Of a DNA stretch of 64,000 nucleotides, positions 13,529-47,792 are shown piece by piece. The translations under genes were made by a program, and so were the position numbers. The notes under the pieces were generated by a model that was not told the DNA's origin, did not search any database, and saw only the letters and a program-made list of their open reading frames with translations. Numbering within the stretch: position 1 is the stretch's first letter; each line of letters opens with the position of its first letter. Source of the DNA: an uncultured delta proteobacterium (GTDB lineage: Bacteria > Desulfobacterota > Desulfobacteria > Desulfobacterales > JAHEIW01); contig CAVPNL010000008.1 in NCBI GenBank assembly GCA_963706575.1, positions 64,001-128,000 on the forward strand, written 5' to 3'.

Positions 13529-13544
13529 TGGCATGTATTTTGCA
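13529..13544 (+). promoter_or_regulatory. Sigma-54 (-24/-12) promoter upstream of giant gene 2
   Basis: TGGCATGTATTTTGCA, GG-N10-GC. Confidence 0.75.
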
Positions 13545-13682
13545 GCTAAATATTTAAATTTATTTGAAATATTGTTAGTGGAAGCTTTGCAAGCTGCAAA
13601 TTGGGGGGCGAATGAAGCCAACATCATCAAAAAATGATTCAGAATCCATTTATTAGCAATATCAACCAGCCGCTTTTCAGCA

Positions 13683-16600: not shown

Positions 16601-19600
16601 ATGAAGGGGTCGGGATCCCTGATCCGGGCGGGAGCTGGGAGTTTGCCGATGGCGGGTTGGATGCGGGCACGAGTGATTTTACGATCTCGGCCTGGTTCTA
16701 CTGGTCGTCTTCGATGACTCAGCGGTATCCCACCATTGTGTACAACGGTGGCGGCGGGCCCGCTGAAGCAGGATATTGGTTCAACTTTGACAAGGATACC
16801 AACGGAATAGATGTTCGGGTTTCCAACGGCACGGAAAGGTTTGTCGCAAACTCGAACACCGGTCTCGGTATGGCTGCCGGCGAATGGAATTATGTGACCG
16901 TCGTCTTCGATCGGGAGCCGACCCTTGATACGGCTTATTTCTACCTCAACGGCGATCCGGTAGGATCGGAGTCCGACAATTTGATCGCGGGTGATTCGGC
17001 GTCGAGCACCATACCTACTGTGTGGATCGGCACAAACTCCTTCATAGGCAACCTCGATGAAGTGCGTATCTCCAGTGAGGTGCGGACAGCCGATTGGATT
17101 AAGACGGAATTCAACAACCAGACCTCTCCATCTACCTTTTCCGTGTTAGGCGGCGCAGCACCGATCGGGGTCGTACTTGATGAGCACAATTCCGGCCAAT
17201 TATCAGACCAGTTTGACACTTCGGTCAGCCATGACAATCTGGGCCTGTTCCGCTTTCAACTGGCCAACAACACCGACAGTGCGGTCACGGTAGACCAGAT
17301 CGTCTTCAACCTTTCCGCCATTTCCGGAATTGTGACCAGTGATCTGAGCGATCTTAGAATCTTCGATGGATCTATGGACGTGGCTACCGGCGGTACGCCA
17401 TCCATTGCCGGTGCAACCGGGACCATCACCTTCAGCGGCAATTTTGTTATTGCGGCCAACACAACGGTGAATTACACCTTGCGGGGCGATGCCGGCAATT
17501 TGGACGGAGAAATTGACGACACCCTGACCATCGCTCTGAGTGTCACCGACATTGATCTGCTGTCAGATACCGTAAGCGGCACAGCGCCCACCAACGTTAC
17601 GCATACCACCGACGATCCCACGGAATTCACGATCCAGATCGTCGGCAGTGCCGACGATTCCCATGCGGCTGATAATCTGGACGATGCATCCACTTACATT
17701 GCCTCTACCAATGTGGATATCACGGCGCATATGAACGGCCTGAGTTCGAAATATAACGGTGGTTTCAGATTCAACGGTGTCAACATTCCGCCCGGCGCCA
17801 CCATCGACAGCGCCACATTCTCCGGATATATCTATAATATTGGGAGCGATAACTTATATTGCACGATTTATGGCCATGATGTGGCCAACGCACCCGATTT
17901 TTCAACCAACACATACATCAAAACGACAGGCCAGCGCCCGCGCACCACGGCCAGCGTTACCTGGCAGTCGGACTTCGGTTCCACCGGGTGGAAGGACAAA
18001 GATGTCACCGGGATTGTGCAGGAAATTGTCGATCGGGGCGACTGGAGCAGCGGCAACGCCATTGCCCTGCTGTTCATATCCGATGATCGGGTATCTCCAT
18101 ACCCTGCCATGTTCCGTTCCTACGACGGCGCGGCTGCCGAGGCAGCCACATTAACCATCGATTACACCCCACCCAACATGCTTTATCGCTCGGTGGGCAA
18201 TACGGCCACCGCCCTGGCAAGCGGTACGAGTCCGAGTAACGCATTGACCATTGCGGGATCCACAGCCACCTTTGCCAGCCCCTTGTCTGAAAATGCGATC
18301 GGCGTCGGTGATGCCATTCAGTACGATTCGGATGACGATGGCACCATCGATGCCATTGCCTTTATTCATGGGCGTACGTCGCAATCAGCATATACGGTCA
18401 AGGACAAGGACGGCAATCCGCCGACGCAACCCAGGCCGCAGATACCGACTGGGCAATTTACCGCTGCTTTCTCGAGCTCGATGACTGGCAGGATCATATC
18501 GTCTCAACGGTCAACTCGGGCATTGGGGAGGAGCGCATCGAAGTTGGGGTTGCCTACAAGGACGGGGTCTTTGCGCCAACGGTCGAAACCTGGTTCGATG
18601 ATTATACCACCGACGCCACTCACTACTTGCAGTTGACCGTAGCCCCGGGTCAGCGACACAACGGCACGGCCGGGAGCGGGGTAATCGTTGATGGCGGTAG
18701 TATGCCGGCATCGAGTGGTCACCTGTTCCGTGTCAGGGACCCCTATTTCAGAATGGAGTGGCTGGAGATCAGAAACTACCCGGGTGACACAGCCAACGGA
18801 CAGCCCATCTACCTGGACGAAGTCGACGCCGCGGACAATTTCTTCTCACACCTGATCATTCATGATTACACCAGCACCGCGCGAGGGGGATTCAGCGTTT
18901 ACGAAAACGCCACCGTTCGCAATTGCATCATTTACAACGGTGACGTGGGGGTCCGGACATACAGCAGCGAGGCCGTACTCGTCCCCACCCTAACGCTCGA
19001 GAACGTAACGGTTTACGGGATGACAGCCGACGGTGTGTATCATAGAGCCGGAACGCTCGTTGCCAAGAATACAATTTCTGTGGGCAATGGCGGCCAGGAC
19101 TTTGACCTGGACAGTGGCAATAGCGCCAATGGTGCGCCGGTTGTGGTTGACGGGAGCTCGGGTTACAATCTTTACAGTACGGTGGATGCCGGCGTTCACC
19201 CCGGGAGTAACAACCAGTCCCCGCCTGCAAGCCTGGAAGACCTGTTTGTCTCCATTGTCGCCTCCTCAGAAAATCTGCATCTTGAATCCAGCGGCCACAA
19301 CGCTCTCAATACCGGTGTAAATTTGTCGTGCTTCTTTCACCGACGACATCGACGGCAACACCCGTACGGGAACCTGGGACATCGGAGCGGACGAGGTCGT
19401 TGCAATGGAACTCTACCGCTCGGTGGGCACCACTGCTACCGATCTGAATACCAGCTCGCGCACGGTGGAGATCTCCGGTACCACGGCTACTTTTTCCGGT
19501 TCCATGCCGGACAATGTTGGGGTGGGTGATGTGCTGGTGTACAACAACGGCAGCGCCCAGCTGGCATTTATCCACGGCCGTACTTCCGCTACGGTCTTTA

Positions 19601-22600
19601 CGGTCACAAACAAAGACGGCGGTACACCCGCAGCAGCTTCAGCGGGAACATCGGTGGGTGTTTATCGGGCCTACACCTCGCTAAGCAACTGGGAATCACA
19701 GACCGAAAATGCAAACATCACCGAACCCACCGAAGATGATGTCAACCCTTCAGTGGACCTGACTGCAGCCACCGGCGATAATACCATCATGATGGTGGCC
19801 TGCTACGGCGATGGAGAAGACACGGCTTCTACTTTTATTGATAGCTGGACCACGGGGCCGGACAACTATATCAAGATCTATACGCCGGTTTCTTTGAGCG
19901 AGGTTGGCACGAGCCAGCGGCACAATGGAATCTGGGATACCTCGGCCTACCGCATATCAATGGACGGGACTTATTTCGCTCCGATAGGGATACGGGAGCG
20001 TTACGTCCGTATCGATGGGCTGCAAATAGATAGTAATCTTGAGTATAATAATGAATCGAACGGAATTCATGTCAGTGATGATAATGCTGATGCCGCGGTG
20101 GAGATTCATATTTCCAATTCAATTTTTCGGATGACGAGCGCCCCCCCAACTACCGCGGCATTTGGTATTGGCGCCTTGAATCAGTTTGGTGGAGCGAACA
20201 GCCTTTACGTTGCCAAAGTATGGAATAACATCATCTATGGCTATGCTGTTAGCGGCGGTGGCGGTAACTGTATATACGCTCAAAATAACGGCACCGTTTA
20301 TGCTTACAACAACACGTGTGTCGGCGGCAGTGGGGCTGGAAACGGGATAGCGGCATGGGATAATATAGATTTCTATGCCAAAAATAACATCTCTGTTGAT
20401 TTTACGGATCCATACAAAAATACTTTTCACGCGGACAGTACCAATAATGTCTCCGATATCGGGGATGCACCGGGCAGCAACCCGATCAATGGAGAGCCCA
20501 CTTTTGCCAATAAGGCCGGAAATGATTATCACTTAGACAGCAGTGATACAGTGGCGCAGGGGGCAGGCGCGAACCTCGAGTGGGACGCCATTCTCCCCAT
20601 CACCGACGACATCGACGGGGATGCCCGCCCGACCGGCGCCAATACCTGGGACATCGGTGCGGATGAGTATCCAGTCAATCCGAACTCATCGCCCAGCGCT
20701 CCCACAACGCCTTACTGCGACGATAACACTTCCCAGAGCGGGCAGACGAATCCGAGCGGTATTACCGACCCCACCCCGGCTTTCAGCGCGATTTACAATG
20801 ACCCAGATTCAGGGGACATTGCAAACAAGTACCGGGTGGAAGTCAACACCGCCAGCGATTTTGGCGGCACGGAGATGTGGGATTCGGGCGCCGGCGGCAC
20901 CAGCATGACCAACACCACCGCAGGCGATCGCTGCCCGGATATCACCTATGCGGGCACGGCCCTGGCCAGCGACACCACCTATTACTGGCGCATTACCTTC
21001 TGGGACGATGATGACACAGTAGGTACGGTAAGCGTCACCCAAAATTTTACCACCGGGACGATTCCCACCAGCACCAAAAGCTGGGGTGAAAATAGCAGCA
21101 GTAATGATTATACCAGTGTTACCGAAGACACCTTTATGGACTCGGGCAGCAATGACCAGGAGGAAGGTTCATGTACCGGCAATGATGCCGTTCGAATCGG
21201 CTACAGAACCGATGCCGGCACACGCGCCATGCGGTCTTTGATAAAATTTGACCTTACTCAACTTGGCAACCTCATTTCCAGCACCAGCGATATTGTCTCA
21301 GCGACACTAAATGTAAAGATAGGCCAGAAAAACGGCAATGATATCGATGTGGATGCCTTCCGGGTATTGAAAAGCTGGAGTCAGGGCGACGAATGCCATA
21401 ACGTGGCCGAATCCGGTGAAACCACCTGGCGTTATCAGTCTTACAACGGCACGGAGTGGACATCATGGGGCGCGGATAGTGCCGGTAACGACCGGGCCAG
21501 CAGTGCTGATGATACCACCACAATAACTGCATCAGGCTGGGTTTCTTGGGATGTCACCCAGTCCGTTAAAGATATGGTCGTCGACGGTAACTACGACGGC
21601 TGGGTACTTAAGTCCCAGAGCGAAAGTGGAACCAATTGGTCCGCCTTTTATAGCAGCGAACACAGCACTGAAGCCGACCGGCCCTATCTGGAAATCACGT
21701 ATAACAATGATACAGCCTGCGGCTATGCTTACAAGCGGGCCATCACCATCTGATCACAACGATGTCATCGGCGACAGCGGTGATACGGTGGATCTGATCG
21801 ATTTTCCGGTCGTGATAAAAGAGTCCGGCACCTGGCTCAGAAACAGCGGCTACACCGACGGGCGCATCGAAAATGGGAATGGCTATGACATCATCTTCAA
21901 AGATTCCACCGAAACGCTGACCCTGGCGCACGAAATCGAGTATTATTATGAAGGATCGGAGGCCGCCAATGGAGAACTGGTGGCCTGGGTGAAAATCCCC
22001 ACCCTGGATGCGGATGCCAATACCGTCATTTACATGTACTACGGCAACAGCTGTGTTACGGCAGAAACTCAAGATAAAACCGCGGTGTGGGATACCGCTA
22101 ACGGCTGGCGGGGGGTCTGGCATTTGAAAGAAAGCACCGGGACGCAATGCAATGACAGCACCTCAAATGCCAACAATGGAACACCCAGTTCACCGGAACC
22201 ACCGGAGCAGGTATCAGGAAAGTTCGATGGGAGCCTTTACTTCGATGATGACGGTGATGCCAATGAGCGCAACATTTTGGTTTCGGACGACGACAACAGC
22301 CTCGACCTGCCCTCCGCCATGACAGTCTCTGCCTGGGTGAAGACCGCCGATACGGATCCGGATGTCGGTGTCATCCTGATGAAATGGTCTGACACCGCAT
22401 CACAGAAAAATTACTGGCTCGGCAAACTGAATGACACCAGCATTGCTTTTTATGTGGACGATTCGGAGAATGTGACGGCCTCATTGAGCCTCATCAATGA
22501 TGGAACCGACTTCCACCACGTCGTGGCTGTCGCCGATCCGACCGGCGGCTCCGAAGAGTTGCGGATTTATGTTGATGGTATTGAGAGAAATTTCGTTGTC

Positions 22601-25600
22601 TGGGACGGAACTTCCAGGACCGAGGATGCAGATTTTCGAATTGGAAATAGTACGACGGTCTTGCAGGAATTTGGAGGTACGATTGACGAGGTCCGCGTTT
22701 CCAGCGTCGTGCGCACCGACGGCTGGATTCAAACTTCATTCAATAACCAGGACGATCCCTCTGCTTTTTATGGAATTGGCGGTGAAGGTCCTGTCGGCGG
22801 CACAGCCGACCTTGATCAAATTCACTACCGCTGGCGCGACGATAATGGCGGCGAGACAGGCGGGTTTGATACCGGCACGGGTGTTGATGGATCGGTTACC
22901 ATCGCGACTTCAAAAAATCTCAATACCGATGTGCTTGGATCCCTTCGCTCCACCAACCCTGATGGCATCGCTACTGCAGTTTCTTCATTTGGCAGCGCCA
23001 CCGGCGGCACAACGCTTACAGTAGCATCGGCAAGCGGCTTTGCAGCTGATGATGAAATTTTGCTGATAAATCTTCAGGGGGACGCCACCAACTACGGAAA
23101 TGTCGGCAATTATGAGTTTCTTGAGATCCAGTCCATATCGACCAATACCTTTACGTTTAAGACCGCGATCCAGAAGATATACGGCGCGACGACTTCAAAT
23201 TTAGATTTGACGGGTCAAAAAGTGTTCGTCCAGCGTGTTCCGCAATGGACCGATGTGACCATCGAAGACGGCGGAATCTTAATGTCTGATTACTGGATCG
23301 CTTCAAAAGGCGGTGTCGTCGCTTTTAGAGCCACCGGTGCGGTTACCGTAAATACCAATGGCAGGATCTGGGCTGAAGGTAACGGATACAGGGGAGGGCC
23401 TCAGAACACAGATGCGTCCGTGGACTCGTGGCGCTATAAAGGCGAGGGTTTTATCGGCGGTTTCAGCACTGCAGGATCAGACGGGTCGGCCAACTCAGAA
23501 GGCGGGGGACCGGGCCATTCGGACGGAGATAATGACGTTGGCACGGGTATCGGTGGTGGTGGCGGCGGCGGTTACGGATCGACGGGATCTGACGGAACAA
23601 TTACCCAGGGAACCGGTTTTGAAGGTTTAGGCGGAAGCACCTATGGCGCTCTGGAGCTCACCAAATTATACCTGGGCTCGGCCGGCGGCAGCGGCGGACA
23701 CGATACCGATGCTGCCGGCAGAAACGGCGGGGCTGGCGGCGACGGCGGCGGTATCATTTTTATTGCAGCCGATACCATAATCGTCAACGGTACGATTACC
23801 GGTGACGGTGAAGACGGAAATGCGAGTACCGACGCCGGGTGCGGCGGCGGCGGGGGTAGCGGCGGATCAATCCTTCTTCAGGCGAACACGGCAACATTGG
23901 GCACGAATAAAGTCACCGCTGTCGGGGGTTCCGGGGCAGCTGGATTAAGATCCTGTGATGGCGGCGCTGGCGGGGTCGGGCGCATCCGGGTTGAAGTGGA
24001 TGCCGCCAACCTGTCCGGTACGACCAATCCAACGGCCTCTGAGGCGGACACGCCAGATTCAGGGACGGGTGCCGACTTCCTGGAAGATCAAGACACTCCC
24101 CATACGGGGCTTGACAAATCCACGACGATTCGTCTGAGACTGGAAGTTTCCAATGAAGGCGATGTATTCGCGGATTCTGTTCAATACCGTCTCGAGTATG
24201 CCACATCCACCGGCGGGCCCTGGACAGCGGTGCCCGACACGGCCACAACCGAACACTGGCAGATGTCTGCTTCCGACTATATCAGCGACACCGGAGAAGC
24301 GACGACGGATATTACCGGCGGACTGACCAATGAAAATACCACATTTATGCCCGGAGAGCTCAGAGACAACACCGCCATAACTAACGGCATTACTCTGTCG
24401 GCGATTCAATTCACAGAAATTGAATATTCCATCGAAGCTACCTTCAATGCCACCAATAGCGGGACCTATTACTTCCGTGTAACCAATAGTGGTTCATCGA
24501 CCGACTTTAGCTATTCGGTTTATCCAGAGGTGACACTTAGTTGCGGGTATGCTTACAGACGGGCCATCACCATCGATCACACCAAGGTCATCGGCGACAG
24601 CGGCGATACGGTTGATCAGATCGATTTTCCCGTAGTGATAAATGAATCTGGAACCTGGCTCAGAAACAGCGGCTACAGCGACGGACGCATCGAAAATGTT
24701 AACGGCTATGACATTATCTTCAAAGATGCCACCGAAACAACTACCCTGGCGCACGAAATCGAATATTACAACGCCGGCTCCGAGGCTGCCAACGGGGAGC
24801 TGGTGGCCTGGGTAAGGATCCCCACTCTTGATGCGGATGCAAATACCGTCATTTATATGTATTACGGCAATAGCTGCATTGTAAGCACAACAGAAAATCC
24901 GGCCGGGGTTTGGGCCAATGGGTATGTGGGGGTATGGCATCTTCATGATGATTACAACGACAGTACCTCAAATGCTAATCATATGACTGCTTCTGGAACG
25001 CCGTCTTATACGTCCTCCAAGATTGCCGGCGGCGTCGATTTTGATCAGAGTGGGGCTAACCAGTATCTGAGTCGCACAGACGCCAATTGTGTGGAAATTC
25101 CGGGAAAAAGCGACGGCAGCGGCGCCGATGATTTTACCTTCAGTCTCTGGATGAACCTAGATGATGAAACGACAAGGCATCCGTTTATGTCAAAGCAGTC
25201 ATCTGCCGCCGGGCGCGGTTACGTCTTTTCGAGAGAGGATTCTAACGATACCTATAAAGGGTATATGGAGGTTTACAACTCCAGCTTTGCCCAACACAAT
25301 ATTTATTCAGATTCGCTCAACCAGGACAAATGGTACTACGTGGTGGGAATTTACGATGGTGTCGACGATCTGACGCTCTATATTGCTGACGAAACCGGTT
25401 GGCTAACCAACTCCCCCTGGACTGCAAACCAGCCCAGCCATGGCGCTCCTCGCGACAACACCGCAGATTTTCACATCGGCCGCTATTACTGGGATGCAGG
25501 TAACAATTATCATTTAGACGGAACGCTGGATGAAGCCCGAATTTCCAATACAGTTCGAAGCCAGGGGTGGATTGAGACCGAATACAACAACCAGACCGCT

Positions 25601-28600
25601 CCATCTACTTTTTACGGAATGGGCGGTGAAGGGCCTGTCGGCGGCAACTTTGCACCCACGGCACCAACGACACCTTACAGTAACAATAATACCGCCCAGA
25701 GCGGTGCGACCAACCCGAGCGGGATTACCGATACCACCCCGGCATTCAGCGCCATATACAACGATCCGGATTCAGGAGACATTGCAAACAAGTACCGCGT
25801 GGAGGTCAACACCGCCAGCAATTTTGGCGGCACGGTGATGTGGGATTCGGGCGCATCGGCGGCACGAGCATGGCAAACACCACTGCGGGCAACCGCTGCC
25901 CGGACATCATCTATGCGGGCTCGGCGCTGGAGGATAGCACCACCTATTACTGGCGCATTACTTTCTGGGACGATGAGGGCACCGAAGGGACGGTAAGCGC
26001 CACCCAGAATTTTACCACCGGTGCGATTTCATGCTATGAGCTTTTTGACTACCGCAAGTCAATCACCATTGATCGGAGCAAGATTGCCAACCCGGCCCTG
26101 TTGGCGATCGCCTTTGATGCGGTTTCCAGCGCCGAGACGGTTCCGGCCGGCGGGGCCACCAGCCTGACCTGGTCGCACACCCTCGGCTCCGGACAGGACC
26201 CGATCCTGGTTGTGGGGGTGTCCATTAGAAACAACAGCAGCCAGCAGGTGAGCTCTGTCACCTACAATGGAACCGCTCTGACCAAAATAGACGTCGTGGA
26301 CAACGCCACCTACGTTCGCGCAGAGCTGTGGTATTTGCCAAAGGCGAGCTTGCCGGCTCCGGGGACCTACGATGTTGTGGTCAACATGACGGCGACCGCC
26401 AGGTTTGTTGCCGGCGCGTTTTCTTTGTTCAACGTGGACCCGACCACGCCTCTGGGCACCTTTGCCTCCAATACCGGAAGCGGGAATCCCACCTGGGCCG
26501 CTTCTGTGGATGTTCCCAGCGCGAGCGGCGAGATCGTGGTTGGAACCCTTGCCAAGCAATACGACGATCCGGTCAAGCCGGAGCAGGGTCAGCACCAGGC
26601 TGATCGCTGGAATCACACGACCAACGACGCTTCCGCCAACAACGTGCTGGGAGTCGGGACCCTGAGAGGCGGCGAAGCTCCCAATGCATCACCATACTGG
26701 GCGCTGGGTGGGACGACCAACGGTCAGCAGTGGGCGATCGCCGGGGTGTCGGTCAAACCGACGACAGAAGCTGCGCCCCAGATCACAACCCTCACGGATT
26801 ATCCGCTGCTTTACAGCGTCACCGATTCCGACATGCAAGCGAATGTAATCAACGCCAACGGGTGGGACATTATCTTTCACGCTTCAGATGATACCACCTG
26901 CGGTGGCGCCGGGCTGGCCCCGTGCATCCTGGATCATGAAATCGAAAAATACGATCCGGCTACCGGCAAGCTGGTGGCCTGGGTTCGGCTGCCTTCGGTC
27001 AATGGGGTGGGGGCGACTTCAGATACGGTTATTGATATCTCCTACGGCAACACCTGTATCAGCGCACCGACGGCCAACAAAACCGGGGTGTGGGATTCTA
27101 ATTATATGGAAGTGTGGCACCTTAGCGAAAGCTCCGGCGACGCCAGCGACTCGACTTCCAACGGTTACGTCGCTGCGGTGCAGGCCGACCCGGGGACACC
27201 GACCCATCCGGATGCCAAGATCGGCGGCGGCTACCAATTTGCCGGCGACTCCTGGCTTTTGACCAACGACGGCCAGTTTGCCGTGGCCAACGCACCGCTG
27301 ACCATAGAAGGCTGGTTTCACATCGACAGCGGAACCCCGAGCTGGGTGGGGATCGCCACCAAAAACCGTGATGTGAGCTGCTCCGACAACCCGCCCTATT
27401 GCGACTGGGCCGGGGTCTGGATCGGCGGCTCCGGTGAGCTGACCTACGCGTGGGACTGGCACAACCAGGCCAACATTGAAGGCGGTGCCGCGCTTTCCAC
27501 AGGTACCTGGTACTACGGTGCCATCACCTTCGATGGCGGGATTCGCACCGGCTTTCGAAACGGTCTGCGCGACACCGTCGTGACTTCGCCCAACCCCAGT
27601 CCCGGCACCTATACCGATATGACCATGCCCACCCGCATGAACAAAGACCTGGACGGCGGCGGCATGATGAGCGGCATCATCGACGAGGTGCGCATCTCCA
27701 CCGCAGCGCGCACACCGGGCTGGATCTTAAGCTCCTACAATAACATGAACAACCCGGGCGACATTGGAAGCCCCGGCTTTTATACGGTGGGGCCTCAAAT
27801 CGATGAGAGCTGCAATGACCCATTTGCCTACCGGCGGCTGATCACCATCGATCATAACGAGGTGGGATTGGACAACAATCCGGGCAGCCTTACGAATTTC
27901 CCGGCGCTGGTCAGCCTGTCGGGAAGCTGGTTGCGGACCACTATCGCAGACCCTACCAAGGGACGGATAGAACATTACAAGGGCTGGGACATCGTATTCA
28001 GAGCTTCCGACGAAGTCACCCATCTGGATCATGAGATCGAATACTACGACGGCTCGGCATCCGGCGGTGATGTCACCCGGATTGACAGCTGGAGCACCGG
28101 CACCGGGGATCCCACCGGTCCATACACGGTGCCGGCCGGCAGCAATCGGCTGCTGGTTCTTGTCACCGCCTTAGAGTGCAGCGCCACTCTCCGCACCATT
28201 GACGGGGTAACTTTCGGCACCACGCCCATGACGCGGGCCGAAACAACATACCTGGAAGGATCTCCGGGAAATTACATCAAAGTGGAGATCTGGTACCTGA
28301 AAGATGCCGACATTCCGGCGGGCAGCCAAAGCTTTGACATCAGTTACAGTTCAGCCCCGACAGCTGCACTGCACGCCTGGGCAACATTTGAAAATGTCGA
28401 TCAGATCAACCCGCTGGTGCACAAAAACACAGGCTCCGATGCCAATCCTGTTGAGGCTGCAGTCGATGTAGTCGACGGTGGAATGTCGGTTGCAGGCGTC
28501 ATATGCGGTATTGGGCAACAGATCTTATACCTGGGGAAACGGCTGGTCTGAGACCACGGACGAGGACGATACGCTCCGGGTTGTGTCGACGGCGGAGCAC

Positions 28601-31600
28601 GCCGCAGCGGCAGACGGTACCGATACCGCCAGTGCGACTGTTAGTGTCACCGTCCCATGGCAGACGCTTGTCGTTGCCAGTCTGCGGCCGTCATCGGCCG
28701 GCGATCTGGTGGCCTGGGTGCGTATCCCCAGCCTTGCCAAGAATGCCGATACCCAGATTTACATGTACTACGGCAACAGCTGCATTGCCAACAACACCGA
28801 AAATCCGGCAGGCGTCTGGGTCAACTACGCCGGTGTGTGGCACTTAACGGAAAACGGCAGCGGAGCTGCCGGTGAATTCAAAGACAGCACCCAATACGGC
28901 AATCACGGACAGGGGGGTGAAGGGGTTTCTCAATTTATTCCCACCCGGGTAGCCGGCAGGATAGTTACGGGCAGGATTTTGTCATTACACCGTGATAGTA
29001 ATGCAAATGGGAGCGGACGAAGGACAATTAATTGATTGTGGAAATGATGCCAGCCTGGATATCAGCGGTAATGAAATTACGCTTGAGGCCTGGGTTAAGC
29101 ATTCGATCGTTCCTGACTTTGGTGATTGGTACGGGATTCTGAATCACAAGGGTTGGGACTACGGTTATCGCATATTTATTCCTGACAATAGTCTTAAGCT
29201 CAAGTTTTCAGCTTCCCGGAGATACGGATAGCCTTATCTAGCGCCGGGGATATTACTTGCCGGGGGCTGGCATCATGTTGTCGCCACTTATGATGGCGCC
29301 AATATGAGGATTTATATCGATGGCGTAAAAGACGCAAATGAAAGGTCTAAACCGAGGTAATATTGAATCCGTGCCGCCGGACGGAAAATGAAGTCTGGAT
29401 CGGGCACGGTGATCAGCCAAAGGACGTGGCATGGAGTTATCCATGGGAGGGCCAGATCGACGAAGTCCGCATTTCTGCGACTGCCCGATCGGCGGACTGG
29501 ATTGCCACCGAATACAACAACCAGAGCTCATCGCTTACGTTTTTGAGTGTGGGTGCCGAGGATGCTGGCGCGCCCACCGCGTTAGTCTGATTTCCTTTAC
29601 GGCCAAAGGCGCGGGGCAACGCGGTGCAGGTCAACTGGCAAACCGCCCAGGAAGTGGCCAACGTGGGCTTTAACCTGTACCGGGCAGACAGCCCCAGCAG
29701 GTCAGTTTAAAAAGATCAACAACAGCCTGATTCCGGCGCTGAGCTTTTCAGCTTCAGGCAGATCCTACGGCTTTACCGACACCAACGTGGTGTTAGGCAA
29801 CCTTTATTATTACAAGCTTGAAGACATCGACATTTACGGCAAGCGCACCATGCACGGGCCCATCTGCGTGGACTGGGACGGCGACGGGCTTCCCGATGAC
29901 TGGGAGATCAGACACGGGCTCAACCCCTGGTTAAATGATGCCAATCTTGATTCTGACGGCGACGGGCTGACCAACCTGCAAGAATATGAGCTGGGCACCG
30001 ACCCGTTTAACCCCGATACCGACGGCGACGGGATATTAGATGGCCAGGAAGCCAGGAAGCGAGAAAGCCAGGAAGCTGATGGAACGCGCCAGCTTAGCCG
30101 CGGGGTGGAGGTTGTGGCTGAAGATGAAAATGGGATTACCCTTGAGCTTTACACCGACTCCTTTTTTACCGAAAGCGTTTATGCCGACGGTATGGAATAT
30201 GAGCGGCTTAAGATCGATGATTACGTGCACGGTTTTAGCAGCAGAAGTGGGCAAACCCGAGCTGCCGCTAAAAGGCATCCTGGTCAATATCCCCGAAGGG
30301 CAGATCGGTGAGCTGTCCATTTTACAGACCGTCGTTGAGACCCATAGCGGTTATCAGATCTTTCCGGTGCCGGCAAACAGCGTTGATGATCAGGGTGACT
30401 GCAGCCGCTGTGGCAGAAAGCTTTGTTATCGATTCTGAGGCCTACGCCACAGATGCCTTTTACCCGCAAGCAGTCGCGCAGTTAGGTGATCTGTTTGCCT
30501 TCCGTGATCAAAACAAACAGCAGCTGATCTTTTACCCGTTTGCCTTTAACCCGGTCACCGGCGAGCTTAACCATTACAAACGCATTCAGGTAAGAATCGA
30601 CTATGTCGATGACCTGTTTGCCAAAGTTGAAGATCAAAGTGTTAGCCCCTGGACGGTGCCGCTGCCCGCACCATCTTCAGGGGATCTGTCCGAGACACTG
30701 GCCTCGATGGGCTCTTATGCCATGGCCTTTGGGGCATCTCCGTTGATTGTAAACCCGCTGTCACCGGCGCTGACCTCTTTGGGTGTGATCATGGGCGCGG
30801 TGTGGTCACCGCCTGCTGATGGGGCAGCCAGCGCCTATAAGATTATGGTCGCAGAAGATGGCCTTTATCGGCTTGACAGCGCCTTTTTTGCCAACAACGG
30901 CATTGATCCCGCCGACATCGATTTAGATACCGTGCGCCTCTATCATATGGGTGAAGAAATCGCTGTTTTGGTCAACGATGCCGACACCCCCGGTGCCTTT
31001 GATGCCAACGATTATATCGAGTTTTATGGCAGCAGCCGGTAGCGGCTCAATATGCCAAATACGCGGCCCAAAACATCTACTGGCTGGTGACCGCTGGCGG
31101 CATCGGATCGCCCAAACGCATGGTCACAGTCGATGGTAGCCCCGGCAGCCGGGCCGGTGGCCACCGAGCACAGCGCTTCTGTGCGCTTAGAAGACGATGA
31201 ATACTATGTGGGGCTGGCCCCGGGCACAAACGAGCGCGACCGCTGGTTTTTTGATGACTTTGTGCTGGGCACTGACTTTACCGGCGGGCCAAATCCGGTG
31301 CAGGTGCCCTTTGACCTCACGCTTGCCGGGAGTTATCGGCTCGGGTAATCTGACCATCTCGTTGTGGGGCTATTATGACACCGGCCATGAGGTGGAAGTG
31401 TGGGTCAATGATGTGTCCCAGGGCACTTTTAGCTGGAGCGGCGTTGCCTTTTATGAGGTGAACTTGAGCGGGCTTAATTTGACTGAAAACACCACCGTAA
31501 AACTAGCCTGTAACACCGCCATGGACGGGCTGATTGTCGATTATATCGAGGCCACTTACCCGCAAAGCTTTGCTGCGGTCGCTGACAGCCTCACATTTAG

Positions 31601-33424
31601 CCACGACAGCGGCTACCGCTATGTCATCGATGATTTTAGCACCGATGCCCTGCGTGTTTTTGACATCACCGACCCAACTGATGTGGCCACAGGTCACCAA
31701 CATGCAAATTAGCGGCGCAGGTCCTTTTAGCCTTGAGTTTGAACCGCCGCCAAGCGGGCTGACCGACACGCTTTCTTGTCATCGGCACCGATGATTATAA
31801 GATCCCTGAGGCGATCATCGAAGATGTACCCTCTGATCTGGCCGACACCGCCAACAGCGTCGATTACATCTTAATTACCCACCAAGACATCGGCTGGGAC
31901 GGTGGTGGTGCGCAATATGGCTGGTTAACCGATCTGGTGGCCCTGCGTGAAGATGGTGATCTTAGAAGTTAAGGTGGTTAATGTCACCGACATCTATGAT
32001 GAGTTTAGCTACGGGATCAGCACCCCGGTGGCGATCCGTGACTTTTTGTCCTATGCCTACGGCAACTGGCGTACGCCGGCACCCCAGTATGTGCTGTTGG
32101 TGGGCGACAGCACCTATGATTTTAAAGACAACTACAACCGGGGCACCGTAAACCATGTGCCCGCTTACACGGTGTTTACCGATTATATGGGTGAGACCGT
32201 CACAGACGAATACTTTGTGACCATCAGCGGCGATGATGCGCTGGTCGATATGTACATCGGGCGGCTGCCGGCCCAAAGCGCAGCCGATGCCACAGCGATG
32301 GTAAATAAGATCATCGCCTATGAGACCGGGCTTAACAGCGGCAGCTGGGAGAAAAACGTGGTGTTGGTCGCCGATGATCAAACCGAAGCCTATGAGGCGG
32401 TCTTTGAGACCATCAACGAGGATGCCGCAGCGCTGCTGCCGGCTAAGATGGTGGCCTTAAAGGGCTATTTAAACGATTATCTGCTCTCTGGTGATTTAAG
32501 CACTGACATCACCAACTGGATCAATGACGGGGCGTTAATTGTCAATTACAGCGGCCATGCCTCATTGCAGCAGTGGGCGGCAGAGGCGGTTTTTGTCAAT
32601 GCCGATGTAAACACTTTAACCAACACCGGCAAATATCCGTTTGTTATCTCCATGAGCTGTTTGACCGGCTACTTCGGGTACCTGGATGCAGCCCTGGGCC
32701 CGCAGCCCTCACTGGCCGAAGCACTTGTTGCAGGCTGCCGACAAAGGGGCCGTAGCAGCGCTGATGCCCACGGGCATGACCACCACAGCCGGTCAGCACA
32801 TATTCAACAACGCGGTTTTTGAGGCCCTTTTTGTAAACGATATCAGACAGTTGGGACCTGCGATCGCCTCTGCCAAACAAACCCTTTTAGCCAACGGCGA
32901 TGCCTATTTTGAGCAGATATCACAGACCTTTTTGCTCTTTGGCGATCCGGCGCAAACCTTAAAGATCCCGCTGCCCAGAATGCCCGGCGGGGTAAAGGCC
33001 TATTGGGAAAACAACTCGGTGCGCATTCGCTGGAATGCGGCCCTTGACAGCAACGGCAACGCGGTTGCGGGCTACAACATCTACCGTGCCAGCGCCCCGG
33101 CAGGCCCTTACAGCAGGGTCAACACCGAGCTTGTCACCGGCACCGAGTTTGTCGACACTGAAGGGGCGGTGGGCATCGATGAGGGCGGTGGAGCCGGCGG
33201 CAGCTATTACGGGGTCACAGCGGTTGACAGCTTCGGGGATGAAAGTGCGCAGTCACTGGGTATCAGCCCGGCTTCGGTGGCTTCATCGGCCGAAGCGCGC
33301 GGCGGCAGCTTGTTTTGTCGGTACTGTCAGCGGGTCAATACCCGCAGGGCTGTTTTGGATTTTGGCGATCTTTACCTTCGCTGTGGTTATTGCGCACTGG
33401 CGCATGGCACACGGCGCACGGTAA
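13683..33424 (+). CDS. Giant modular surface protein 2 (about 6,500 aa, many frameshifts): signal peptide, DUF2341/LamG arrays, beta-helix-like, DNRLRE-like and Gly-rich domains, C25 peptidase, Cys-TM C-terminal tail
   Basis: Signal peptide (...[23 protein letters not shown]). ORFs 13683, 14581, 18627, 19405, 21551, 25840, 28478, 28992, 29363, 29787, 30040, 30308, 31133, 31197, 31534, 31947, 32686 and 33035 chain together; the C-terminal part is colinear with gene 1. Exact start uncertain. Confidence 0.82.
20692..21057 (+). repeat. Intragenic FN3-like repeat (PSAPTTPY...TQNFTTG), copy 1 of 2
   Basis: Recurs at about 25652..26022. Confidence 0.9.
21718..22054 (+). repeat. Intragenic DUF2341 repeat (CGYAY...YYGNSC), copy 1 of 2
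   Basis: Near-identical copy at 24542..24877. Confidence 0.92.
24542..24877 (+). repeat. Intragenic DUF2341 repeat, copy 2 of 2
   Basis: Near-identical to 21718..22054. Confidence 0.92.
25652..26022 (+). repeat. Intragenic FN3-like repeat, copy 2 of 2
   Basis: Matches 20692..21057. Confidence 0.9.
29576..33402 (+). repeat. 3.8-kb constant block, copy 2
   Basis: Colinear with 8295..12110. Confidence 0.95.
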
Positions 33425-33470
33425 AGCATAGCGCATAGGGCAGAGCGCAAAGGGTTCAGAGGATCAGAAT

Positions 33471-33589: not shown

Positions 33590-33605
33590 TGGCACATTGT
33601 TTGCA
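33590..33605 (+). promoter_or_regulatory. Sigma-54 promoter upstream of the PqqD/precursor operon
   Basis: TGGCACATTGTTTGCA, GG-N10-GC. Confidence 0.8.
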
Positions 33606-33739
33606 GTTATTCGATCGGATGCGGTTGGCTGAAGTTCAGCTTTACTGTGTGTTTACTAAGGATTGCAGGATAAAAGTGGTGAGCAGACAGCAGCATAACT
33701 TATTAAAATTTAATGGAATATTCAATCGGAGTTGAAACG

Positions 33740-34033
33740 ATGCCGGAAATTGATCAGGTGTTTCGAAAAAATGATAATTTTGTCTTCCGCCAAATCGATG
33801 ACGAAACCATCCTGGTTCCCATCAAAGACAACCTGGGCGATATGGGGTCTATTTATAATCTAAATGAAGTCGGCGCCTTTGTATGGGAACAACTGGATGG
33901 CCACAAAACATTAAGTGATATCAATAAAATGTTGACCGATGAATTCGATATACCTGAAGGGGAGTCAGAGGAAGATTTAATTGAATTCGTAAGCCAACTC
34001 AAAGAAATCGATGCCATAATTCATAAAGAATAA
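33740..34033 (+). CDS. PqqD family protein / RiPP recognition element
   Basis: FRQIDDETILVP...IYNLNEVGAFVWEQLDG...EFD...DLIEFVSQL; GGAG before ATG 33740 (alternative start 33713). Confidence 0.92.
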   Translation: MPEIDQVFRKNDNFVFRQIDDETILVPIKDNLGDMGSIYNLNEVGAFVWEQLDGHKTLSDINKMLTDEFDIPEGESEEDLIEFVSQLKEIDAIIHKE

Positions 34034-34069
34034 AAGAAAAAAACGTATCGGAGAAATGGAGTTAGATAT

Positions 34070-34234
34070 ATGGAAAAGAAAAAAAAGAAGAGATATGTGA
34101 AACCCAAATTAACAAAAATCTATCTGGATGCAGAATGTGCGGTGCTGGGGGCCTGTAAATTTTCAGGCGGCAGCGGACCCAACGGTAGCAATTGCGGGCT
34201 TCCGTTCCCGGCCTGTAACCAATCATCGTCCTGA
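34070..34234 (+). CDS. Putative RiPP precursor, 54 aa: MEKKKKKRYVKPKLTKIYLDAECAVLGACKFSGGSGPNGSNCGLPFPACNQSSS
   Basis: Hand translation; GGAG 8 nt upstream; YxxPxL RRE-binding leader motif; 36 nt after the PqqD gene; below the ORF-track cutoff. Confidence 0.88.
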   Translation: MEKKKKKRYVKPKLTKIYLDAECAVLGACKFSGGSGPNGSNCGLPFPACNQSSS

Positions 34235-34414
34235 TGGCCGGTTAATGCATAAGGGCCTCATTTTAGGGATCCGACAGCGCAGCATGCACCCGGCTTCGCT
34301 CTGGCGAGCCATGCCGCGACCGGCGGTGGTCGACCTTACATTTTGAGCAAAAGCTGTCTGGATTCGCACCCGAGAGGCTCTGTCCTAATTCAAAAACGAA
34401 TTTGACTTCTGACC

Positions 34415-34493
34415 GTCATGCCGGACATGATCCGGCATCCCGAACTGTAACGCTCTTAAAAAGCACTGGATTCCGGGTCAAGCCCGGAATGAC
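34415..34493. repeat. Palindromic interspersed element (paired hairpins)
   Basis: GTCATGCCGGACATGATCCGGCATCC ... GGATTCCGGGTCAAGCCCGGAATGAC. Confidence 0.8.
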
Positions 34494-34652
34494 AAAAATG
34501 CTCATTTCCGCCGCTTGAGAATTATGACACATTTTCATTTGAAGGAATAAAAATTTTGACAGGCGAAGACCGGCACTGCTTCCTGTAATTGCGAACGCTC
34601 CATTAAATTTTGAATCCTTCATAAATCGAAAACTCACATAAAAGAGATATCG

Positions 34653-35501
34653 ATGGCAGATAACCTTACATTTAAAATCGGCGACATCGGAATTTCGTTT
34701 GACGGTGAACCCCAAATAAAGCAAAGCGAAATCAAAGCAGCCTATCGTCCGTTTATCAGTGCGGACGCGCCGGACATTGCCCTGCGGATGCATATGGATT
34801 CTCCGGGAATTCCGGCCGGAGAAAAAATATTCGACAGTTTGCCGATCTGGGCACTTTACCGTCACAATGATAGTTTGATCATCAACCTTTTCGAAACCAT
34901 GAACGGATTGAAACGGTCTTTATGCATCTCGCGGGATTTTAATCAGGCTGACCTGTATTTTACAGAACCGAATGGTTCCTTTCTCGATCCGTTTTTTGGT
35001 CCGACCATCGAGCTTCTGATGGTGAACTACCTGGCCCGCGTCGGGAGTATAATCGTTCATGCTTGCGGCATCGACTATGATGGGAAAGGCCTTCTGTTTG
35101 TGGGCGAGTCCGGCGCCGGGAAAAGCACTCTGACCAGAATCTGGAACAAAGAAAAGGGTGTCGAAATTTTAAGTGACGATAGAATCATTATCCGCAAGAT
35201 GAATGATCAGTACTGGATGTACGGGACCCCATGGCATGGCGATGCCAGGTTCGCATCCCCGGCGAAAGTCAAACTGGAAAAAGTCTTCTTTATCAAACAT
35301 GGCCCGGCAAATTCCGCCAAAGCAGTGGCCGGAAGCTTTCCGGTGCTGCAATTCCTGAAGGCTTCATTTCCGCCATACTGGGATAAAAACAGCATGAAAT
35401 TTGCGATGGAATTTTTCAATGATCTGGTTGCGGCGGTCCCGTGCCGGGAAATGTCGTTTGTGCCGAACAGCAAAATCGTCGAATTTGTTAATCGATATTA
35501 G
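34653..35501 (+). CDS. HPr-kinase-like P-loop protein (PadeK/ScmC-like RiPP-associated kinase fold)
   Basis: HACGI...LFVGESGAGKST...LSDDR...GTPWHG. Confidence 0.82.
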   Translation: MADNLTFKIGDIGISFDGEPQIKQSEIKAAYRPFISADAPDIALRMHMDSPGIPAGEKIFDSLPIWALYRHNDSLIINLFETMNGLKRSLCISRDFNQADLYFTEPNGSFLDPFFGPTIELLMVNYLARVGSIIVHACGIDYDGKGLLFVGESGAGKSTLTRIWNKEKGVEILSDDRIIIRKMNDQYWMYGTPWHGDARFASPAKVKLEKVFFIKHGPANSAKAVAGSFPVLQFLKASFPPYWDKNSMKFAMEFFNDLVAAVPCREMSFVPNSKIVEFVNRY

Positions 35502-35690
35502 GACTGAGTGCTGAGGACTGAGGACTGAGATAAGATAGCAGAGGTCAGATGTCAGAGGACAGAAGACAGATGACAATCAGAAAGTAGGGCGGCCCTCTGC
35601 GCCCGCCAGTTGAGGTTGGCACGGTGGCTCGGTGTCTGGCCCTATTTAATTGTTTTGCCGTGCGCCTTGTGCCGTGCACCTTGAGCCGAA
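35499..35690. repeat. Short heptamer tandem repeats flanking a degenerate GTAG REP
   Basis: ACTGAGG/CAGAGGT-type and TGCGCCT/TGTGCCG-type units. Confidence 0.65.
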
Positions 35691-35756
35691 CTGCTGGTAT
35701 CACCAGTGTGTGTTTTAGATTAAAAGAAGTAAGAAATAAGCGATCCGGTCACAATA

Positions 35757-36875
35757 ATGAATTTTATTGAATACCAAATACTGCTGGCTGCCAGCGACAA
35801 TGAACCCGGCACGGAGCAACGGCAAAAGCTGCTGGGATTAATATCACAACATTTTGATCAGGACCGACTAATCGAAATGGCGGTGCGCGAGGGGGTTGCC
35901 GGTCTTTTATATAAAAATTTGAAAAAAATCGGTGTCCTGGGATATCTTGGCCACAGGCAGATTGAAAAACTCCAATCTTTTTATTATTCTGCTGTACGTT
36001 TGAACCTCAGATTGCTGCATGATCTAAAAGAAATTCTGCAAAAACTTAATCTATCAAAGACTAAGGTCGTGCTATTGCAGGGAATCCCTCTGTTGCAGCA
36101 AATCTATAAAGATATTGGACTGCGCCCCCTGACAGATATCGATTTGTGGGTTTTGCCCGAATATTTCTCGGGGGTTGAAAGTACACTTGTCAAACTGGGT
36201 TATCGGAGTGATCCGCTCTACCCGAAGACCTTTAAAAGAAATTCCACGCTAATTGACGTGAATACCCACATTCTGTGGGCAGATCGCATCAAAAGCAGGC
36301 GCTTCCTTATAAACGCTGGTCAGCAGGATATCTATGAGAACTGCCGGGCCATTGATATTGAAGGCGAAACCGCTGATTGTCTGAGCCGGACGGATCAGGT
36401 CATATACCTGAGCCTGCATGCATTTAAGCATAATCTGGACCGGTTGATCTGGCTGGTGGATATTAAAAATTTGCTGAAGGGATGGGAGGCTTCCGATTGG
36501 GTAGCCCTTGACAAACGTTCAAGGGAGCTTGGCATAAAGCATGTCGTAAGTTATATCCTGTTCTACCTGGATCATCTCTTTGAATTCCAGTTTCCCCCGG
36601 ATGCCCGGGCGATTTATGAATTTACAAAAATAAGTTATCTGGAAAGATACATCCTGCGGAAACGGTTGCTGGGAAAACCGCTGGCGGTATGGGGCCCGCT
36701 AATACTTTTACCTTTGGATAAAAGTTTGTACAGGCGGGTATGTTTTATTTTCGAAAACCTGTTTCCCAGACCACGGGTTTTGAGGCAAATATTTGCAAAA
36801 GCTCCTGATTTCAGCTTCTGGCAACTTTATTTGAAAAGGGCCCGGCAGATATTGGCGCATACCAGAAACAATTAG
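35757..36875 (+). CDS. Nucleotidyltransferase family protein (NTP_transf_5-like)
   Basis: VVLLQG...Y...LRPLTDIDL, LSLHAFKH...LIWLVDI. Confidence 0.85.
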   Translation: MNFIEYQILLAASDNEPGTEQRQKLLGLISQHFDQDRLIEMAVREGVAGLLYKNLKKIGVLGYLGHRQIEKLQSFYYSAVRLNLRLLHDLKEILQKLNLSKTKVVLLQGIPLLQQIYKDIGLRPLTDIDLWVLPEYFSGVESTLVKLGYRSDPLYPKTFKRNSTLIDVNTHILWADRIKSRRFLINAGQQDIYENCRAIDIEGETADCLSRTDQVIYLSLHAFKHNLDRLIWLVDIKNLLKGWEASDWVALDKRSRELGIKHVVSYILFYLDHLFEFQFPPDARAIYEFTKISYLERYILRKRLLGKPLAVWGPLILLPLDKSLYRRVCFIFENLFPRPRVLRQIFAKAPDFSFWQLYLKRARQILAHTRNN

Positions 36876-38549: not shown

Positions 38550-39203
38550 TCAAATAGTTAAAAGACCGAGGGTAAAGATGGCCAGGTTGCCCAGGGAATG
38601 AATCGTTATCGGAACCAGAAGATTTTTCTCGATTTCATATGCAACTGCAAATAGGATCCCGCCGATGAGCTGGGTGACCGGAATGGCAAGCCCGGAAGAG
38701 GGGGAGTGGGGCAGTACAAATAACAGGGTGCTTAATAATACAGCTGCGGGTATTCCCCATCTTCGGAAAAAGCCATAAAGGATGCCCCGGAAAAATATTT
38801 CTTCGGCAACGGGTCCGATCAACGCCCCTACCAGCAAAAAGGTGATGAACCTGTTGCTTTCAGAAGGCAGCTGCATGCGAAAGAGCGCCGTAACCTTGAT
38901 TCCCGCAAGATAGGTGATAAATAAAACGACTCCGGCCGCGACTCCGAATGAGATCGCCCAAATCAAGCCGCTTTTAAGTCCCCTGTATATTTGGGACAAT
39001 GACAGCCCGATGATCGAAAGCCGGTTTTCCCGGAATTTGATGAGGGCCAGCAGAAAAATGATCTGCACAAGACGTGCCAGACCCACACCGGTCAGGGGAG
39101 CCAGAAGATTATGGCTGAGCAGCATTCGTGCCGTGAGTTCGATCGCCGCGATGCCTAAAATGGATATGATTAGGGTGCTTAATTTAATTTCGTTTGCCGC
39201 CAT
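38550..39203 (-). CDS. CPBP (type II CAAX) family intramembrane glutamic endopeptidase
   Basis: PVAEEIFFRG, FVLPH and ITIHSLGN motifs; multi-TM. Confidence 0.92.
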   Translation of the reverse strand: MAANEIKLSTLIISILGIAAIELTARMLLSHNLLAPLTGVGLARLVQIIFLLALIKFRENRLSIIGLSLSQIYRGLKSGLIWAISFGVAAGVVLFITYLAGIKVTALFRMQLPSESNRFITFLLVGALIGPVAEEIFFRGILYGFFRRWGIPAAVLLSTLLFVLPHSPSSGLAIPVTQLIGGILFAVAYEIEKNLLVPITIHSLGNLAIFTLGLLTI

Positions 39204-41816: not shown

Positions 41817-41822
41817 AATAGG

Positions 41823-41958
41823 CCTCACGCAAAGCCGCAAAGGCGCAAAGTTAAAAATGATCGGGCAATATTTATTCGGTTTAACCACAGAGATCACAGA
41901 GAGCGCAGAGACAAGCTCTAAAAATCTGTTCTCTGTGGTCTCTGTGATCTCTGTGGTA
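41823..41958. repeat. Short tandem and inverted repeats (CGCAAAG-type; CACAGAGAT nonamers with inverted copies)
   Basis: ACCACAGAGATCACAGAGAGCGCAGAG ... CTCTGTGGTCTCTGTGATCTCTGTGGT. Confidence 0.75.
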
Positions 41959-42003
41959 AATTATACGATATAAATCCAATTTATTGCATAAGCAGGAGTC
42001 AGT

Positions 42004-42627: not shown

Positions 42628-42722
42628 AATAGATAAAAGACTTTAATTTTAGGCATTTTAGGCACTTCGAACTTTAGGCATTTCTACAAAAACCCCGCAT
42701 TGTTTGAATATTTAAAATAAAT

Positions 42723-47754: not shown

Positions 47755-47792
47755 GGAGTATCGAATACAAAAAAAGGATTAGGATTAGAAAA

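Follow-up and report, generated by a model that had tools for sequence, protein, structure and literature searches.

An unusually split locus of a widespread radical SAM/kinase/S26 RiPP family in an uncultured delta proteobacterium

Genes at the locus and on the distant part of the contig

The stretch of DNA analysed here, called the window, comprises 64,000 nucleotides of contig CAVPNL010000008.1 (C8:64001-128000) in the 5.67-Mb, 25-contig assembly GCA_963706575.1 of an uncultured delta proteobacterium. The subject of this text is a short gene set within it that encodes a 54-residue precursor of a peptide made by ribosomes and then modified after translation (RiPP). A preliminary description, made from the window alone, had listed a sigma-54 motif, a PqqD-like RiPP recognition element (RRE), the peptide, an HprK-like kinase and a nucleotidyltransferase (NTase), and all of these are indeed found where it placed them:

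33590..33605, + strand: sigma-54 (-24/-12) promoter motif TGGCAC-N5-TTGC of the downstream half-cluster (sequence match)
33740..34033, + strand: discrete RRE (PqqD/lasso-B1-like), 97 aa from the second ATG (PF05402, 61.8 bits, cut-off 23.4)
34070..34234, + strand: 54-aa precursor peptide, single copy, under coding selection, with a family of 71 non-redundant homologues
34653..35501, + strand: HprK-like peptide kinase (weak, below-cut-off matches to HprK families; H136, K157, D175, D176)
35757..36875, + strand: PF14907 NTP_transf_5 nucleotidyltransferase, PsmN/LppN-like (PF14907, 151 bits; DxD at 127/129)

The best solved relative of the RRE is TbiB1 (5v1u, E 8.6e-14), and a GGAG sits 11-14 nt 5′ of the peptide start. 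The sigma-54 motif upstream of the RRE gene is kept in all eight same-genus relatives whose fetched locus includes that gene. Exact + strand motifs of this kind number four in C8:1-100 kb, against a mean of 0.18 and a maximum of 2 in shuffled sequence, and they precede the RRE, two blocks of giant surface-protein genes and also pilin genes; a scan for sigma-70 promoters stayed at chance level (6 found, 5.9 expected).

The preliminary description had also pointed out that no lasso cyclase, B2 peptidase or SPASM enzyme is adjacent and that the core lacks Asp and Glu. This is literally true and nonetheless misleading, because the cognate radical S-adenosylmethionine (SAM)/SPASM enzyme, an S26 peptidase and an exporter are encoded on the same contig and strand; the apparent lack of a maturase arises because the window boundary excludes this upstream half. 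A genome-wide search for SPASM partners had been proposed, and a scan for CxxxCxxC found the cognate enzyme, a radical SAM protein of the same family as the kinase-adjacent radical SAM enzymes of relatives. The distant genes, all outside the window, are as follows:

C8:7565-9400, + strand: MsbA-like ATP-binding cassette (ABC) exporter
C8:9569-10741, + strand: radical SAM/SPASM enzyme (CxxxCxxC scan)
C8:11334-11936, + strand: S26 (SipW/SEC11-type; S24/S26) peptidase (TIGR02228, 55.7 bits, cut-off 51.85)

This block ends a glycosyltransferase operon. The radical SAM gene lies about 87 kb upstream of the peptide half, and 86 kb separate the S26 gene from the RRE promoter, a gap filled by minor-pilin/PilY1-like genes and four giant surface-protein genes with C25 peptidase domains. 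The genome has one copy each of the precursor, kinase, S26, NTase and family radical SAM genes, every one of them on the + strand of C8, and the RRE has one distant second match, on contig C6. Although the assembly is rich in indels, none of the seven genes is interrupted and the catalytic residues are retained. A Pfam SPASM search of the same genome missed the cognate enzyme and returned four other matches, two of them AhbC/D-like by sequence.

Several further features touch on these genes. Right after the S26 gene, C8:12419-20386 (L042, outside the window) carries a sigma-54 motif followed by the type IV minor-pilin and PilY1-like genes, and the same order recurs in one relative (G007). A second, unrelated PqqD-like protein of 146 aa is encoded at C6:781991 (G000; L002:1237-1677); some 2 kb away, at C6:778443, there is another radical SAM gene. 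The intergenic segments at 34279-34519 and 35484-35724 of the window have very high depth in sediment metagenome contigs and are dispersed repeats common to many genomes.

The precursor family and its associated enzymes

The precursor consists of a leader with Y9xxP12xL and a core with C29-K30, C42 and C49, ending in S54. Homologues were gathered from kinase-anchored loci in related genomes and metagenomes (for the metagenomes, among the matches listed), giving 78 distinct peptides, of which 71 remained after an 80% redundancy filter and 65 could be parsed, the family motif being [YW]xxPxL…EAVLxxCK…C…C…S-stop; the six unparsed ones, five with CK and one (L018) with CA, stand outside the counts below. 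Every parsed peptide opens with [YW]xxP, and the first Cys follows 20-21 residues downstream. A Glu stands at -6 from this Cys in 52/65, followed in most by Ala-Val-Leu; Lys comes directly after the Cys in 63/65; exactly three core Cys are present in 60/65, with variable spacing (12-17, then mostly 5-7); and the C-terminal residue is Ser or Thr in 64/65. The survey of small open reading frames near homologous kinases that the preliminary description had suggested thus bears out the conservation of the leader motif, AVLxxCK and the terminal Ser/Thr, and the peptide stands as a real RiPP precursor with a lasso-type leader. Over 22 codons of nine same-genus copies, first, second and third codon positions account for 125, 95 and 338 pairwise differences, and synonymous codon differences outnumber non-synonymous ones (268 versus 151), so that the gene is under purifying coding selection and is not a chance reading frame.

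No Pfam or NCBIfam family was found for the precursor when this sequence and nine homologues were compared with NCBIfam, and one with Pfam. A search of genome contigs with the peptide pattern alone passed one stretch of 430, a 24-residue match. In the clade of this locus (8/65), a fourth Cys (Cys23, 34136-34138) replaces the family Glu at -6. A reading of LxxC as a lipobox, and hence of the peptide as a lipoprotein, was rejected, as several residues (A, H, F, G, V) occur at the -1 position and a hydrophobic h-region is lacking. Next to a divergent radical SAM enzyme of the family, another genome encodes a different, 46-aa YxKPxI precursor that ends in CPPCS (L070:8659-8796; G041).

Where at least 1.5 kb upstream of the peptide is available, the radical SAM enzyme is encoded in 47 of 51 loci, in 42 of them no more than 300 bp from the peptide, a count that omits 18 short loci, six of them same-genus loci without an adjacent radical SAM gene; of the four exceptions, two come from same-genus genomes that carry the gene on another contig. 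Long peptide loci (at least 12 kb, n = 34; fusions added by hand) contain a kinase in 33, by construction, an RRE in 32, the radical SAM gene in 30, S26 in 26, C25 in 17, the NTase in 16 and an ABC gene in 7. Among 61 relatives the kinase occurs in 15/16 genomes positive for the radical SAM enzyme, and that enzyme in 1/40 kinase-negative ones; within the genus it is present in 6/9 peptide-positive versus 1/13 peptide-negative genomes. In trees of 29 kinase/radical SAM pairs, the distant enzyme falls inside a 100/98-supported clade with radical SAM enzymes encoded between an RRE and a peptide, and the similarity matrices of the two proteins, which are not independent, correlate with rho 0.76. 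Of 401 genomes sampled across this phylum, 24 gave kinase profile matches, and a metagenome scan with a close kinase alignment gave at least 74 loci.

The same parts are joined physically elsewhere. One genome (G053) has an unbroken operon, ABC-rSAM-S26-C25-RRE::precursor-kinase-NTase (rSAM, radical SAM), with the same peptide subtype and one C25 gene only; its RRE-peptide fusion is a single open reading frame (G053 C9, L065:11369-11968) made of the RRE, a short linker, the leader and a three-Cys core ending in GS. The radical SAM enzyme is fused to the kinase in three genomes, G327, G225 and, partially, G194 (L111:8819-10825, L122:9289-11361, L107:5160-6713). S26 is fused to NTase, RRE, ABC, kinase, C25 giants (nine times) or Wza-like proteins (twice). 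More specifically, it is joined to methyltransferase, GNAT, NTase, RRE or ABC domains in L108, L110, L130, L133, L137, L169 and L177; C25 proteins of 2400-3000 aa carry it in frame before their signal peptide in L145, L146, L150, L151, L152, L154, L157, L161 and L168, with partial fusions of this type in L147 and L149; and it precedes Wza-like polysaccharide export proteins in frame in L142 and L156. Signal-peptide cleavage of such fusions would leave a membrane-tethered cytoplasmic S26.

The enzymes themselves, the previously noted kinase and NTase among them, have intact catalytic motifs. In the kinase, H136, K157 and D175 are invariant in 17/17 homologues and D176 is kept by at least 90% of a subset of 11 sequences, a His-Lys-Asp-Asp set as in lasso precursor kinases. 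The D127-x-D129 of the NTase is invariant in 23/23 and resembles the essential D134/D136 of PsmN; for this protein no solved relative was found by sequence, no Foldseek match at E <= 0.001 was obtained, and an ESM Atlas structure search returned unnamed clusters only. Its weak fold matches (E > 1e-3) include ANT(2″)-Ia, whose structure was used as a template in the article on PsmN (PMC6993621). The radical SAM enzyme combines CxxxCxxC with seven SPASM-type Cys, C260/C278 and C315-x2-C318-x5-C324-x2-C327-x18-C346, of which C260, C278, C315, C318 and C324 are invariant and C327 and C346 at least 90% conserved (n = 63). These auxiliary Cys fit the SPASM motif given in PMC5682303, and the Pfam SPASM model gives no match. 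Its structural model has a predicted local distance difference test score (pLDDT) of 95, the nearest solved structures are SkfB, CteB, PqqE and SuiB at 14-20% identity, and the best NCBIfam matches are of AhbD/NirJ/MftC type, all far below cut-off. In the S26 peptidase, whose nearest solved relative is SEC11, S32 and H70 are invariant and D115 is at least 90% conserved (n = 36), matching the S29/H68/D93 triad of LppS from the linear polyphosphorylated peptide (LPP) pathway (PMC13381572).

A three-chain structure prediction of RRE, peptide and radical SAM enzyme scored an ipSAE of 0.79, versus 0.21 for the best of three controls; the mark for this score is reached by 116/157 solved and 2/215 mismatched pairs, counts that hold only roughly for this complex. 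At least 49% of the contacts recur between runs, the partner pLDDT is at least 86, and residues 2-6 of the enzyme are predicted to pair with residues 15-19 of the peptide.

Proposed pathway and competing explanations

Taken together, these data make it probable, in our judgement to a good degree, that promoter, RRE, precursor, kinase and NTase at this locus make up one half of a single split RiPP pathway, with the exporter, radical SAM and S26 genes as its other half. From the observed genes, their conservation, co-occurrence, fusions and catalytic motifs we infer the following chemistry and function. The RRE would bind the Y9xxP12xL leader, a step strongly suggested by its family, the RRE-precursor fusion and the model, and the RRE-leader sheet is predicted to recruit the radical SAM enzyme through the N-terminal strand of the latter. 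The enzyme would then, slightly more likely than not, install one or more Cys thioethers at the fixed-register C29-K30 or close to it, with C42 and C49 in further thioethers or in one disulfide. Three core Cys are an odd number, so that disulfides alone cannot use them all; for this reason, and because SkfA, the substrate of the top structural match, carries one thioether (PMC5682303), a Cys thioether is judged most likely. The kinase is quite likely to phosphorylate or polyphosphorylate the terminal Ser54, as PadeK and PsmK do. It is slightly favoured that S26 and the RRE remove the leader, as LppS does, probably after Ala24, which would leave a 30-aa core, V25-S54; an alternative cut would follow Gly27, of the Val-x-Gly signal-peptidase type. 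The NTase might, more tentatively and by analogy with PsmN, decorate the phosphoserine with a sugar or sugar-phosphate, and the ABC transporter would export the product into a cell-surface/exopolysaccharide setting.

The cut after Ala24 is predicted because the Glu-Ala register of the peptide family, counted from the Tyr, equals the E(-2)-T(-1) positions of LPPs (PMC13381572), and because of the position of the first Cys in a sister family. These sister precursors (L180, L184, L186, L191, L192, L194, L195) follow [YW]xxPx[IV]…FE[TVS]xx[AL]xCGK…C…S-stop; they retain the FE[T] motif of LPPs and have their first Cys at +5, the same offset as in the peptide family. By its sequence pattern the sister family would therefore bridge LPPs and the peptide family and lend support to the predicted site.

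The surroundings of the two halves bear on the role of the product. The gene directly upstream of the sigma-54 motif is the last of four tandem giants:

13529..33438, + strand: final member of the tandem array of four giant C25 (PorU/gingipain-like) surface-protein genes, preceded by a separate sigma-54 motif (13529) and carrying frameshifts in the assembly

The four tandem giants (window 1-33438; C8:21.5-97.4 kb) carry LamG, DUF2341, TSP3 and C25 domains, and each has at its end a tail of the form ACFV-G…transmembrane-basic; contig C6 holds one further C25 gene, the fifth. The many frameshifts in the four genes are probably assembly errors, as several of the breaks coincide with single bases that are missing from short-read contigs of relatives (four DNA runs). 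A CPBP/Rce1-like intramembrane protease at 38550-39236 (- strand), which has weak similarity to MrtJ, the JDVT-CTERM sortase (39 bits against a cut-off of 75), is a candidate processing enzyme for the C-terminal tails of the giants. Exopolysaccharide genes follow at 41115-54050, encoding a deacetylase, a DegT-type aminotransferase, WecA-like, PEP-CTERM-type ATPase, FG-GAP/Wza-like and Wzc-like proteins and, presumably, a WbqC-like protein; the nearby polysaccharide genes noted in the preliminary description (WecA-, Wza- and Wzc-like) are thus confirmed. The exopolysaccharide and giant-protein setting and the shared sigma-54 motifs seem to point to a role in surface or biofilm assembly.

Several observations weigh against the split pathway as proposed, and some of them favour the view taken in the preliminary description, namely a self-contained four-gene operon that works without a radical SAM enzyme and whose peptide is merely disulfide-bonded, is first phosphorylated and afterwards receives a nucleotidyl group or a sugar. 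A conserved sigma-54 promoter of their own precedes the four genes, and no sigma-54 motif was found directly before the exporter/radical SAM genes, so that co-expression of the halves is no more than presumed. Three same-genus metagenome-assembled genomes with 440-600 contigs, G001 (90% complete), G015 (91%) and G005 (71%), have the peptide and no radical SAM gene of the family was found in them. In G001 the contig ends inside the exporter, where the radical SAM gene would come next; in G015 and G005 exporter, radical SAM and S26 genes were all not found, a pattern that fits missing contigs or real loss alike. The radical SAM gene of G012 carries a 1-nt frameshift, and conversely the peptide was not found in G034 (97% complete, 740 contigs) and G024 despite a radical SAM gene and a kinase. 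The co-occurrence counts, besides the omitted loci mentioned above, overstate the association because kin are not independent, and the NTase is present in merely 16 of the 34 long loci. The predicted complex places only peptide residues 13-23 with confidence, leaves the core unplaced and does not inform on a crosslink, and its score may owe to likeness with solved RRE-radical SAM structures. Finally, the LPP phosphosite is internal (S3), and LppN was heterologously inactive (PMC13381572). Even so, a four-gene operon without a radical SAM step is very improbable, given the radical SAM gene in 47 of 51 informative loci, the unbroken operon and radical SAM-kinase fusions, the three core Cys in 60/65 peptides, and the fact that the four genes include neither a leader peptidase nor an exporter. 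The one near-closed locus with no radical SAM gene nearby (G060, 99% complete, 3 contigs; n = 1) has a kinase, RRE, S26 and ABC cassette and a candidate precursor that is Cys-free (L077:9361-9501), ending in a long proline run and with Ser at the family's first-Cys position. The preliminary description had itself named homologous clusters carrying a radical SAM enzyme that was lost here as a finding that would overturn its reading; homologous clusters do carry one, and here it is not lost, only some 87 kb away. Least probable of all is that a split cluster is decaying in the genus and that the four genes are its remnant: the patchy presence of the peptide (9/22 genus genomes) and the frameshift in G012 would agree with decay, but seven open genes with catalytic residues, purifying selection on the peptide and the conserved promoter argue against it.

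The more serious alternatives accept the split pathway and differ on its product. There is a lesser but appreciable chance that the radical SAM enzyme makes no thioether and acts instead on Lys30 or the backbone (C-C crosslink, epimerisation or oxidation), the Cys forming a disulfide plus a free thiol or binding a metal or Fe-S cluster. The C-C bond-forming PqqE scores nearly equal to SkfB among the solved relatives, the AhbD/NirJ/MftC-type best matches, far below cut-off as they are, lean the same way, and so do the Lys that follows the first Cys in 63/65 and the variable Cys spacing. Against this, the three Cys keep their register with leader and terminus across divergent homologues, the thioether-forming SkfB and CteB top the structure search, and the Cys-free candidate in L077 comes from a locus without the enzyme. 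Rather unlikely is a product that is a structural linker and not diffusible, in which the phosphoserine primes or carries a glycan and an amine, that of the new N-terminus or of Lys30, is the acceptor for the PorU-like C25 transpeptidase domain of the giant surface proteins. Such a role would suit the S26 fusions to C25 giants (nine loci) and Wza-like exporters (two), the C25 giants in 17/34 long loci, the position of the half-clusters on either side of four C25 genes, the sigma-54 motifs that precede the RRE and two blocks of giant genes, and the occurrence of LPPs, likewise, in capsule loci (PMC13381572). Yet in half of the long loci the fetched sequence contains no C25 gene, the giants here end in their own Cys-transmembrane-basic tail, fusions can mirror mere adjacency and membrane tethering, and the conjugate is hypothetical. 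An equally speculative form of the idea is a covalent adaptor of a new surface-assembly system, in which a peptide rigidified by the radical SAM enzyme, bearing a glycan on its C-terminal phosphoserine through the kinase and NTase, would be joined via its N-terminal amine or the conserved Lys to the giant adhesin-like proteins by their own PorU-like C25 domain, in bacteria without type IX secretion; if true, it would tie surface proteins to exopolysaccharide without that system.

The split pathway with a Cys-crosslinked, phosphorylated product remains our preferred reading, and the locus is a genuine and intact representative of a radical-SAM/kinase/S26 RiPP family that is widespread but uncharacterised, here with its genes split in an unusual way. 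This matters in several respects: (i) RiPP clusters can be split by more than 80 kb, and mining restricted to the neighbourhood misreads such clusters, (ii) the natural RRE-precursor, radical SAM-kinase and S26-NTase fusions offer compact constructs for reconstitution, and (iii) the cassette's close ties to Wza/Wzc genes and to giant C25 proteins provide a way to test the roles in capsule loci of phosphorylated lasso peptides, LPPs and PF14907 enzymes, which were posed as questions in PMC13381572.

Comparison with known systems

The cassette unites three logics that have been described separately, i.e. a lasso-type leader with C-terminal Ser phosphorylation, LPP-type leader removal by a signal peptidase, and radical SAM crosslinking. 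With the phosphorylated lasso peptides paeninodin (PadeK) and pseudomycoidin (PsmK/PsmN) it shares the YxxPxL leader, a B1-like RRE, the His-Lys-Asp-Asp kinase, the C-terminal Ser and a DxD NTP transferase (PMC6993621, PMC9266682), two articles that also confirm these systems as the precedents invoked in the preliminary description. The [YW]xxPxL leader and discrete B1 RRE agree with a lasso pathway, but there is no macrolactam cyclase (none on C8; three PF00733 matches in the genome, on C3 and C6), no B2 leader peptidase in the cluster (one marginal PF13471 match, 26.4 bits over 41 positions, on C15 only) and no ring-forming Asp or Glu at core position 7-9, nor indeed anywhere in the core, as in 37/65 homologous cores; S26 and the radical SAM enzyme stand in their place. 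The earlier judgement that the pathway is not a lasso pathway is thus upheld.

The closest overall resemblance in gene content is to the LPPs of Bacillota (lppA-K-B-S-D-N; Popov et al., Nat Commun 2026, PMC13381572), for which a non-lasso pathway of RRE, HprK, NTase, SpI-peptidase and ABC transporter is described. Common to both are a discrete RRE for a YxxP leader, an HprK-like kinase, a SpI/SipW-type Ser-His-Asp peptidase, an NTP transferase, an MsbA-like exporter, the lack of a lasso cyclase and a polysaccharide-locus context, and the five core genes of LPPs are all found on C8, in two blocks 86 kb apart. Unlike LPPs, the pathway has a radical SAM/SPASM enzyme as a core gene, which sets it outside the linearity criterion of that class, together with a three-Cys core with CK, a conserved Ser that is C-terminal and not at +3, and a link to giant C25 proteins. 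Specifically, of the LPP motif YxxPxVLxHQxIxFETxxS only YxxP and the E-[AT] register match, no HQxIxFET motif is seen, and the +3 position of the peptide family is mostly Gly, Ala or Gln, versus the phospho-Ser of LPPs. The available main text of PMC13381572 contains no occurrence of 'radical' or 'rSAM', while Radical_SAM and Peptidase_C25 are column headings in its supplementary domain matrix; a similar radical SAM locus may therefore sit among unremarked matches of that survey.

Sactipeptides and ranthipeptides (SkfB/SkfA, AlbA, CteB; PMC5682303) likewise have a seven-Cys SPASM-type radical SAM enzyme, RRE dependence and a Cys-containing precursor, but they differ in the discrete RRE, lasso-type leader and kinase/NTase/S26 set found here, at 14-20% identity and with scores below all curated cut-offs; membership would depend on the type of linkage. 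The uncharacterised SynChlorMet cassette (TIGR04248-04251) and HPr-rel-A/B systems (TIGR04352, TIGR04355) also pair a PqqD-like with an HprK-like protein, the former with radical SAM/SPASM enzymes as well, and all of their models score far below cut-off (ScmD 41.5/100, ScmC 21.3/125, ScmE 90.9/400, ScmF 77.5/400; HprK_rel_A 22.8/200, HprK_rel_B 38.4/200). The RRE-Finder survey reported about 300 lasso-type RREs found together with radical SAM enzymes as possible uncharacterised classes and, in its available text, does not describe this pathway (PMC7470986); literature searches, whose coverage largely stops short of subscription journals, found no published description of the radical SAM variant or its product. 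New here are the split layout, the fusion network and the predicted cut site. From the sequence comparisons as a whole, the pathway is best read as a radical SAM, three-cysteine relative of LPPs with a lasso-type C-terminal Ser, neither a lasso pathway nor a true LPP pathway.

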